From: Escherichia coli
GTDB taxonomy: Bacteria; Pseudomonadota; Gammaproteobacteria; Enterobacterales; Enterobacteriaceae
NCBI RefSeq assembly: GCF_003018235.1
Contig: NZ_CP027437.1
Direction: 5' to 3' (one strand)
DNA length: 64,000 bases
Each line of letters begins with the position of its first letter. The first letter of the stretch is position 1. Position numbers and translations under genes: made by a program. Of the stretch, positions 52,037 through 52,762 are shown one piece after another. The notes below the pieces were generated by a model. That model was not told where the DNA came from. It searched no databases and saw nothing but the letters and a program-made list of their open reading frames with translations.

Positions 52037-52078
52037 TTAGAAATCAGACCAGTGGCGAGAGTATAGGTCGGACCAGCT
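52037..52078 (-). promoter_or_regulatory. two FadR-operator-like sites upstream of fadL (minus-strand AGCTGGTCCGACCTATAC and CACTGGTCTGATTTCTAA)
   Basis: both contain the CTGGTCNGA core of the FadR consensus as I recall it. Confidence 0.5.
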
Positions 52079-52323
52079 GGAATGTTGCAAGTATGTTTCT
52101 ATCTTTTTTCAAATATGATCTAAGAAACGCGATCCAGCTGGCAAAATTTGGAGGTGGCGCACTCATGGATTCGGGTGAATTTTGTTTTAGATCATTTTTA
52201 AGTGTGATTTCGGTCACTTATCCGATTTTGCAGAATTAACAACTGGAGCAGCACTTTCCGGAAGCGTAAAATATCCACAACGTTTATCTGGCACCTTGGG
52301 TGCACATACAGAGGAAATCAACG

Positions 52324-52608
52324 ATGAGTAAATGTAGTGCTGATGAAACCCCGGTTTGCTGCTGTATGGATGTTGGCACCATTATGGACAACTCCGACTG
52401 CACCGCGTCTTACAGCCGCGTGTTTGCAAACCGCGCAGAAGCAGAACAAACGCTGGCGGCGCTGACTGAAAAAGCCCGTAGCGTGGAATCCGAACCGTGC
52501 AAAATCACCCCGACTTTCACTGAAGAGTCTGACGGTGTGCGCCTGGATATCGATTTCACTTTTGCCTGCGAAGCTGAAATGCTGATCTTCCAGCTGGGTC
52601 TGCGTTAA
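52324..52608 (+). CDS. yfcZ: small conserved protein, 94 aa (ORF extends to 52300)
   Basis: ORF track; MSKCSADETPVCCCMDVG start; synteny. Confidence 0.8.
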   Translation: MSKCSADETPVCCCMDVGTIMDNSDCTASYSRVFANRAEAEQTLAALTEKARSVESEPCKITPTFTEESDGVRLDIDFTFACEAEMLIFQLGLR

Positions 52609-52624
52609 TTCCTCTCGGGTACGT

Positions 52625-52661
52625 ACGCCCCTGTCAGTTGTTGGCAGGGGCGTTTTATTTT
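52625..52661 (+). terminator. Rho-independent terminator after yfcZ
   Basis: stem cgcccctg / caggggcg followed by ttttatttt. Confidence 0.65.
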
Positions 52662-52744
52662 CTCTTCTACTTTTCTCTCTGTGTCATAGCTCCCACTTTC
52701 CCTTTTCTCCACTTGGCTAAATGTAAAAAAATGGTTAAGACTAT

Positions 52745-52762
52745 GATCAGGTCAGACCACTT
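52745..52762 (+). promoter_or_regulatory. FadR-operator-like site, gATCAGGTCAGACCACTT, upstream of fadI
   Basis: AGGTCAGACC core; about 30 bp upstream of the fadI start. Confidence 0.5.

Follow-up and report, generated by a model that had tools for sequence, protein, structure and literature searches.

Organization of the fadL-yfcZ-fadIJ region

The DNA analysed here is a 64-kb stretch of Escherichia coli chromosome (hereafter the window), in which the fadL and fadIJ transcription units lie on either side of the small gene yfcZ (Table 1). yfcZ is a separate gene between the two fad units, divergent from fadL, and three 17-bp boxes that resemble operators of the regulator FadR were located around it: two upstream of fadL (O1 and O2) and one upstream of fadI (the fadI box). 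They fit the interval 52037-52762 given in an earlier note on this DNA, which opens at the outer border of fadL O2 and closes with the last base of the fadI box. In E. coli, the species of the window, control of fadL and fadIJ by FadR is well established (PMC3460868, PMC9329746); the fadR gene itself is not within the 64-kb window and lies elsewhere on the chromosome.

Table 1 Coordinates of the features in and around the fadL-fadI region, with position weight matrix (PWM) ranks of the three FadR boxes in the window.
Feature	Position	Strand	Description	PWM rank	Equally good positions expected per shuffled 64 kb
fadL CDS	50612-51952	-	ORF and RefSeq annotation of identical DNA		
fadL FadR operator O2 (site 2)	52038-52054	-	CACTGGTCTGATTTCTA; half-palindrome	11-17	9-33
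fadL transcription start (+1), inferred	52053	-	A of CACTGG; 5'UTR of ~101 nt		
fadL -10 hexamer	52060-52065	-	TATACT; read from sequence; conserved		
fadL FadR operator O1 (site 1)	52062-52078	-	AGCTGGTCCGACCTATA; 3' end overlaps the -10 hexamer	2-3	0.55-1.6
Putative fadL -35 element	52085-52090	-	TTGCAA; 19-nt spacer to the -10		
CRP box	52203-52218	.	TGTGATTTCGGTCACT; in the divergent fadL/yfcZ spacer; 9/10 of TGTGA-N6-TCACA; conserved island		
yfcZ CDS	52324-52608	+	94 aa, YfcZ/YiiS family, DUF406; annotation and translation		
yfcZ intrinsic terminator	52625-52663	+	12-13-bp GC-rich stem (52625-52653), 3-5-nt loop, then TTTTATTTT		
Putative fadIJ core promoter	52713-52747	+	Inferred from sequence and conservation		
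fadIJ FadR operator (fadI box)	52746-52762	+	ATCAGGTCAGACCACTT; near-perfect palindrome, end 26 bp 5' of the fadI ATG	1	0-0.05
fadI CDS	52789-54099	+	ORF and annotation; operon with fadJ		
fadJ CDS	54099-56243	+	ORF and annotation; operon with fadI		

The earlier note had placed yfcZ between the two units with a terminator of its own, and the terminator scan bears this out, returning a hairpin of 13 pairs (8 GC) followed by a U-tract (TTTTATTTT). The minimum free energy is -23.9 kcal/mol (centroid hairpin -23.0) with a z-score of -5.25, and 0 of 200 shuffles fold as well. A hairpin with a T-rich tail at most 75 nt from the yfcZ stop codon, which is a crude criterion, was found in 85 of 107 species, with most of the exceptions in Enterobacter. 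The yfcZ terminator is strong and insulates yfcZ from fadIJ. Downstream of it, a pyrimidine-rich (CT) tract of ~60 bp (52655-52712) extends to the fadI promoter and is poorly conserved. Searching 51850-52850 against Rfam at E <= 1 gave a lone sub-threshold Spot 42 match (21.5 bits; gathering score, 80), which is the yfcZ terminator and was rejected as a Spot 42 candidate. At the gathering threshold the whole window returned tRNAs only, and neither search gave an RNA element explaining the fadL-fadI region.

Promoter geometry of fadL and fadIJ

The fadL strand reads TTGCAA-(19 nt)-TATACT-CTCGCC-A, and a transcription start at the A at 52053 would place O1 at -25 to -9, where it overlaps TATACT, and O2 at -1 to +16. 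On this predicted start the fadL boxes overlap the -10/+1 region, the position expected of promoter occlusion, and their spacing is 24 bp centre to centre. As a cross-check of the predicted start, the centre of the CRP box then lies 157.5 bp upstream, compared with 157 bp in the literature, where a CRP site in the fadL/yfcZ spacer was validated by EMSA (PMC3460868) at a position that agrees with 52203-52218. This distance from the fadL start is atypically far according to the literature. The yfcZ ATG is only 113.5 bp away from the same CRP box, with a conserved TAAAAT (52267-52272) close by, and the box may serve the divergent yfcZ promoter.

The fadL promoter was not called by the promoter scanner, since its 19-nt spacer falls outside the scanner limit of 16-18 nt; the scanner also gave no plus-strand promoter for yfcZ or fadI. 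OmpR and ArcA sites have also been reported in the fadL/yfcZ spacer. Upstream of the known fadL promoter, the minus strand carries a promoter-like TTGCCA-18-GATCAT (52144 to 52115), of which the TTTGCCAGC part is kept across species; it is possibly a second fadL promoter or a regulator site. A sigma-54 promoter at 52243-52259 (CTGGAGCAGCACTTTCC) was considered and is not supported, as the sequence resembles the -24 element only and CTGGAG is its only conserved part; binding of RpoN holoenzyme/NtrC in the yfcZ/fadL spacer has been reported from gSELEX (PMC8743547).

Within the fadL 5'UTR, the minus-strand block 52001-52027 is the best conserved of the fadL-yfcZ spacer across ~110 species and includes a small hairpin, TGTTAC-AGCAC-GTAACA. 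This block may act in sRNA pairing or in the control of translation, and pairing of RybB on fadL mRNA is mentioned in a review (PMC9329746). The RNA fold of the fadL 5'UTR as a whole was no more stable than shuffles (z-score -0.11), which leaves a structured leader unsupported.

For fadIJ, a conserved -35-like TTGGCT (52713-52718) is followed by weak -10 candidates, TAAGAC, AAGACT and TATGAT (52736-52747), with the fadI box lying downstream of the -35-like element and overlapping TATGAT. A FadR site overlapping the fadIJ transcription start and FadR-dependent induction of fadIJ are described in the literature (PMC9329746). Taking the start overlap from that review and treating the -10 elements as candidates, the fadI box would thus overlap the -10/+1 region of fadIJ. 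None of the three boxes is displaced from its promoter, a displacement that the earlier note had named as grounds for giving up its reading.

Core motif and motif statistics

Searching the window for the exact core CTGGTCNGA returned three copies, two of which, at 52044-52052 and 52068-52076, lie upstream of fadL on the minus strand (the fadL sense), as the earlier note had claimed. The single core it had also placed upstream of fadIJ was not recovered as an exact copy: the fadI box reads CAGGTCAGA on the plus strand and GTGGTCTGA on the minus strand, one mismatch away from CTGGTCNGA in either reading. The third exact copy is at 35880-35888 within the evgA coding region, a long ORF without promoter context, and was treated as a chance match. 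Three copies per 64 kb compare with 1.08 expected and were reached in 8 of 100 shuffles, and cores with one mismatch (40 seen versus 34 expected in the window) are at chance level. The two fadL cores, however, lie 24 bp apart in one promoter, and only ~1e-3 such pairs are expected per window, as estimated from the core rate. Three exact cores per 64 kb are therefore unremarkable, whereas so close a pair within a single promoter stands out. As a detector the short core CTGGTCNGA is poor, skipping the strongest site (fadI) and matching a coding region.

We scored both strands of the window (~64,000 positions) with a PWM derived from six FadR sites of K-12, leaving out those of fadL and fadI and using shuffled 64-kb sequence as background. 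The sites of fadD1, fadD2, fadBA, fabA and fabB were taken from a primer table (PMC4259882) and that of fadE as printed in PMC10272880. The fadI box, O1 and O2 were the highest scorers within 51953-52788, and the fadI box outscored all shuffles of the symmetric PWM. The second-best symmetric-PWM match, at 5516-5532 (GGCAAATCCGAGCAGTT), is inside a 413-aa ORF without promoter context and was treated as chance. With the literature consensus AACTGGTCNGACCAGTT at three mismatches or fewer, 52746-52762 was the sole match in the window (0.08 expected); the fadI box has three mismatches over 16 specified positions and O1 has four. The 17-bp palindrome is thus present at the fadI box and O1, while O2 matches only the left half of the consensus and, as a half-site, scores no better than chance with the PWM.

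Judged by sequence only, significance is clear for the fadI box and marginal for O1, whereas O2 cannot be told from chance (Table 1). The PWM scan that the earlier note proposed as a check consequently upholds its reading at the fadI box, gives marginal support at O1 and fails at O2. O2 is nonetheless genuine, as established by published experiment and cross-species conservation, and a motif-only scan would overlook it.

Conservation across species

Related loci were picked independently of the operators, by scanning species-representative genomes with a degenerate nucleotide pattern that encodes the YfcZ peptide CCCMDVGT. This gave 120 species loci from Citrobacter, Enterobacter, Klebsiella, Raoultella, Kosakonia, Kluyvera, Leclercia, Salmonella, Serratia, Tatumella and others, 102 of which keep the fadL-yfcZ-fadI order within the extracted segment. 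The alignments comprised 113 distinct sequences for the fadL-yfcZ spacer and 107 for the yfcZ-fadI spacer.

With almost no exceptions among the 113 fadL-yfcZ spacers, the two best PWM matches of each species were the homologues of O1 and O2, and in nearly all species these stood 24 bp apart at a fixed distance from the fadL ATG. In the conservation profile they appear as the islands CTGGTC.GACCTATACT and CACTGGTCTGATTT, with mean conservation of 0.94 for O1 and 0.95 for O2 compared with 0.82 for the spacer. The O1 core CTGGTC.GACC is invariant, while species differ at its central N and at the two bases of its 5' flank; the central T of O2 is invariant. Upstream of fadI, a FadR box was present in 107 of 107 species, with an identical 17-mer in 89, and it is the best-conserved island of the yfcZ-fadI spacer (mean conservation 0.99 versus 0.71). 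An invariant dyad with more freedom at its central base, a pattern clearest at O1, is what an operator of this type predicts, and a -10 hexamer alone would not give it. Cross-species footprinting thus recovers all three FadR sites cleanly.

Identity with K-12 and published FadR data

Of 5426 complete E. coli genomes, 5425 contain the 951-bp stretch 51900-52850 at >=95% identity. The fadL sites, known as OL1 and OL2, are said to go back to DiRusso and colleagues. By alignment, the fadL-yfcZ spacer is 100% identical to that of K-12 MG1655, and hence so are both fadL boxes. The yfcZ-fadI spacer has four differences from MG1655, none of them inside the FadR box; the fadI box and 80 bp upstream of it are identical to K-12, and an A replaces a T in a T-run 8 bp downstream of the box. 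The comparison with the K-12 operators that the earlier note had suggested therefore finds all three boxes 100% identical to MG1655.

At fadL the identity extends to sequences bound by purified FadR. The EMSA probes fadL-FadR1 (GCAACATTCCAGCTGGTCCGACCTATACTCTCGCC) and fadL-FadR2 (CTCTCGCCACTGGTCTGATTTCTAAGATGTACCTC) of a published study (PMC4259882, Table 2) are exact substrings of the minus strand of the window and contain the O1 and O2 17-mers with flanks. Both fadL sites have equal affinity for FadR, with complete binding at ~50 nM (Feng & Cronan 2012, PMC3460868), and binding is lost with 25-50 uM oleoyl-CoA (PMC3460868). Sites 1 and 2 of K-12 fadL agree with O1 and O2 in sequence, in spacing and in their placement with respect to the promoter and the CRP site; their separation is given as 8 bp (PMC3460868), whereas the 17-mers delimited here are 7 bp apart. 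For the fadI box, the link to a site bound by purified FadR runs through its identity with K-12. The K-12 fadIJ (yfcYX) operator is an identical box in the same place just upstream of fadI, and its source is Campbell, Morgan-Kiss & Cronan 2003, as cited in a review (PMC9329746); no paper among those searched prints the fadI box sequence. According to the same review, FadR represses fadL and fadIJ directly through sites overlapping their transcription starts, and the FadR consensus is aaCTGGTCnGACC(T/A)Gtt (PMC9329746).

The above analyses indicate, with a probability of about 95%, that the three boxes are the known K-12 FadR operators of fadL and fadIJ, which both belong to the fatty-acid degradation regulon. 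This analysis contributes the identity with the K-12 sites, the statistical support, the placement in the promoters and the deep conservation, while FadR binding, ligand release and in vivo repression come from the literature on identical K-12 sequences (PMC3460868, PMC9329746). The FadR-operator reading of the earlier note accordingly holds, with K-12 identity, fadL boxes equal to EMSA probes, conservation in >100 species and reported repression of both units behind it. It is correct and already known, as the operators do not differ in sequence from those of the K-12 reference. They are textbook examples from one of the best-studied bacterial regulons, and the value of the result lies mainly in correct annotation.

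Among fad promoters, two FadR sites are present only at fadL and fadD, and repression is modest at both (PMC3460868). At fadD a distance of 68 bp separates the sites, one of which is far upstream, whereas the fadL sites are adjacent and both within the core promoter (PMC3460868). The fadI box resembles the fadBA operator ATCTGGTACGACCAGAT, which is likewise a 17-bp dyad of the TGGTnnnACCA type, and their PWM scores are close (18.4 for the fadI box and 18.6 for fadBA, the latter being among the source sites of the PWM). The two differ in their halves (GGTA/GACC in fadBA, GGTC/GACC in fadI), in the central triplet and in the flanks. The fadBA operator is the DNA in the FadR-DNA crystal structures. 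The review cites PDB 1H9T (PMC9329746). Of all FadR sites, that of fadBA is described in the literature as the strongest.

Proposed mechanism

In the model we favour, FadR, a GntR-family acyl-CoA-responsive repressor, would bind these imperfect palindromes as dimers through its winged-helix domains when long-chain fatty acids are lacking. At fadL, two dimers 24 bp apart, one on O1 including part of TATACT and one on O2, would jointly occlude RNA polymerase, whereas at fadIJ the target would be a single near-perfect palindrome between the -35-like element and the ribosome-binding site, overlapping the -10/+1 region. Long-chain acyl-CoA made by FadD would then bind the C-terminal domain of FadR, FadR would leave the DNA and both units would be transcribed. 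Further modulation would come from activation by CRP-cAMP and anaerobic repression by ArcA (PMC3460868, PMC9329746).

Alternative readings of the boxes

Of the readings that compete with FadR operators, the one that survives best takes the boxes as shared or primary targets of LldR and PdhR, FadR-subfamily GntR regulators that respond to lactate and pyruvate, with several metabolite signals integrated here. LldR and PdhR boxes have the same TGGTnnnACCA palindrome architecture as FadR boxes, and gSELEX peaks of both regulators fall on these spacers. The LldR peak at yfcZ/fadL was assigned by its authors to the exact O1 and O2 17-mers, and LldR-dependent activation of fadL and yfcZ was reported (PMC10272880), but the signal is modest, with an intensity of 6.6 compared with 62.9 at lldP. 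For PdhR, a peak in the fadI/yfcZ spacer and lower fadI and fadJ mRNA in a pdhR mutant stand against a gel shift on fadI that was a smear (PMC7660256). Flank preferences also differ, AATTGGT... for LldR and PdhR against AACTGGTC... for FadR, and the bases that are invariant across species fit the CTGGTCnGACC of FadR rather than AATTGGTnnnACCAATT. At the fadL and fadI loci the case for LldR and PdhR consists of in vitro selection and mutant expression only, which is weak evidence, whereas FadR binding and ligand release were directly shown (PMC3460868). We regard primary or shared targeting by LldR and PdhR as improbable, and as something that would supplement the FadR explanation and does not replace it.

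The PdhR box picked in the fadI region (PMC7660256) is a 7/14 match at 52793-52809, within the first fadI codons, and the FadR box ~45 bp upstream of it fits TGGTnnnACCA better; the fadI FadR box could explain the PdhR fadI/yfcZ peak. The 17-mer listed for yfdY/lpxP in Table 1 of PMC10272880 is the exact reverse complement of fadL O1 and occurs in the window only at fadL, while the lpxP-yfdY spacer (24472-24488) holds only the second box listed, AATTGGTTGGGCCATCA; the entry is probably a slip in the published table.

A second reading attributes the conservation of O1 and the fadI box to core promoter elements (-10, discriminator and start) rather than to a repressor operator. The 3' end of O1 does overlap TATACT and the fadI box overlaps the candidate -10 TATGAT, but the conserved dyad CTGGTC.GACC reaches well past any -10 hexamer, in O1 and the fadI box the central base that the FadR consensus leaves unconstrained is among the few positions to vary while the dyad on either side is fixed, and O2 is in the transcribed region. 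We therefore consider this explanation very improbable. Chance matches of a short degenerate motif without regulatory role are excluded for the set of three sites, despite the core counts and the O2 score described above, by the rank of the fadI box and its standing as the sole full-palindrome match, by boxes that are conserved islands in >100 species while their flanks (and the central base at O1) vary, and by sequences equal to experimentally bound probes.

FadR operators thus remain our reading of the three boxes, and an extension of it would be a more integrated locus, in which the CRP box also or instead activates the yfcZ promoter and the three boxes dock FadR, LldR and PdhR. We hold this extension to be tentative and rather unlikely. 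If the CRP box did serve yfcZ, the DUF406 protein YfcZ would be co-regulated in a fadL-yfcZ-fadIJ order that is kept in >100 species, and if docking on TGGTnnnACCA were shared, the same DNA would integrate signals from acyl-CoA, lactate and pyruvate.

Neighbouring features in the window

Beyond fadL, the interval towards mlaA is a variable spot, occupied in the window by a 426-aa hypothetical ORF (48965-50245, minus strand), in K-12 by the 352-aa yfdF and in strain 1190 by a 351-aa protein plus a fragment. Further away, at ~40800-46730, lies a sucrose-utilisation (csc) cluster with cscA, a kinase, a transporter and a LacI-family regulator. Together with a truncated GntP/DsdX-family permease gene, this cluster adjoins a tRNA-Arg gene (46655-46726) beside dsdA, whereas in K-12 and strain 1190 a prophage integrase takes the place of the csc cluster at the tRNA-Arg.
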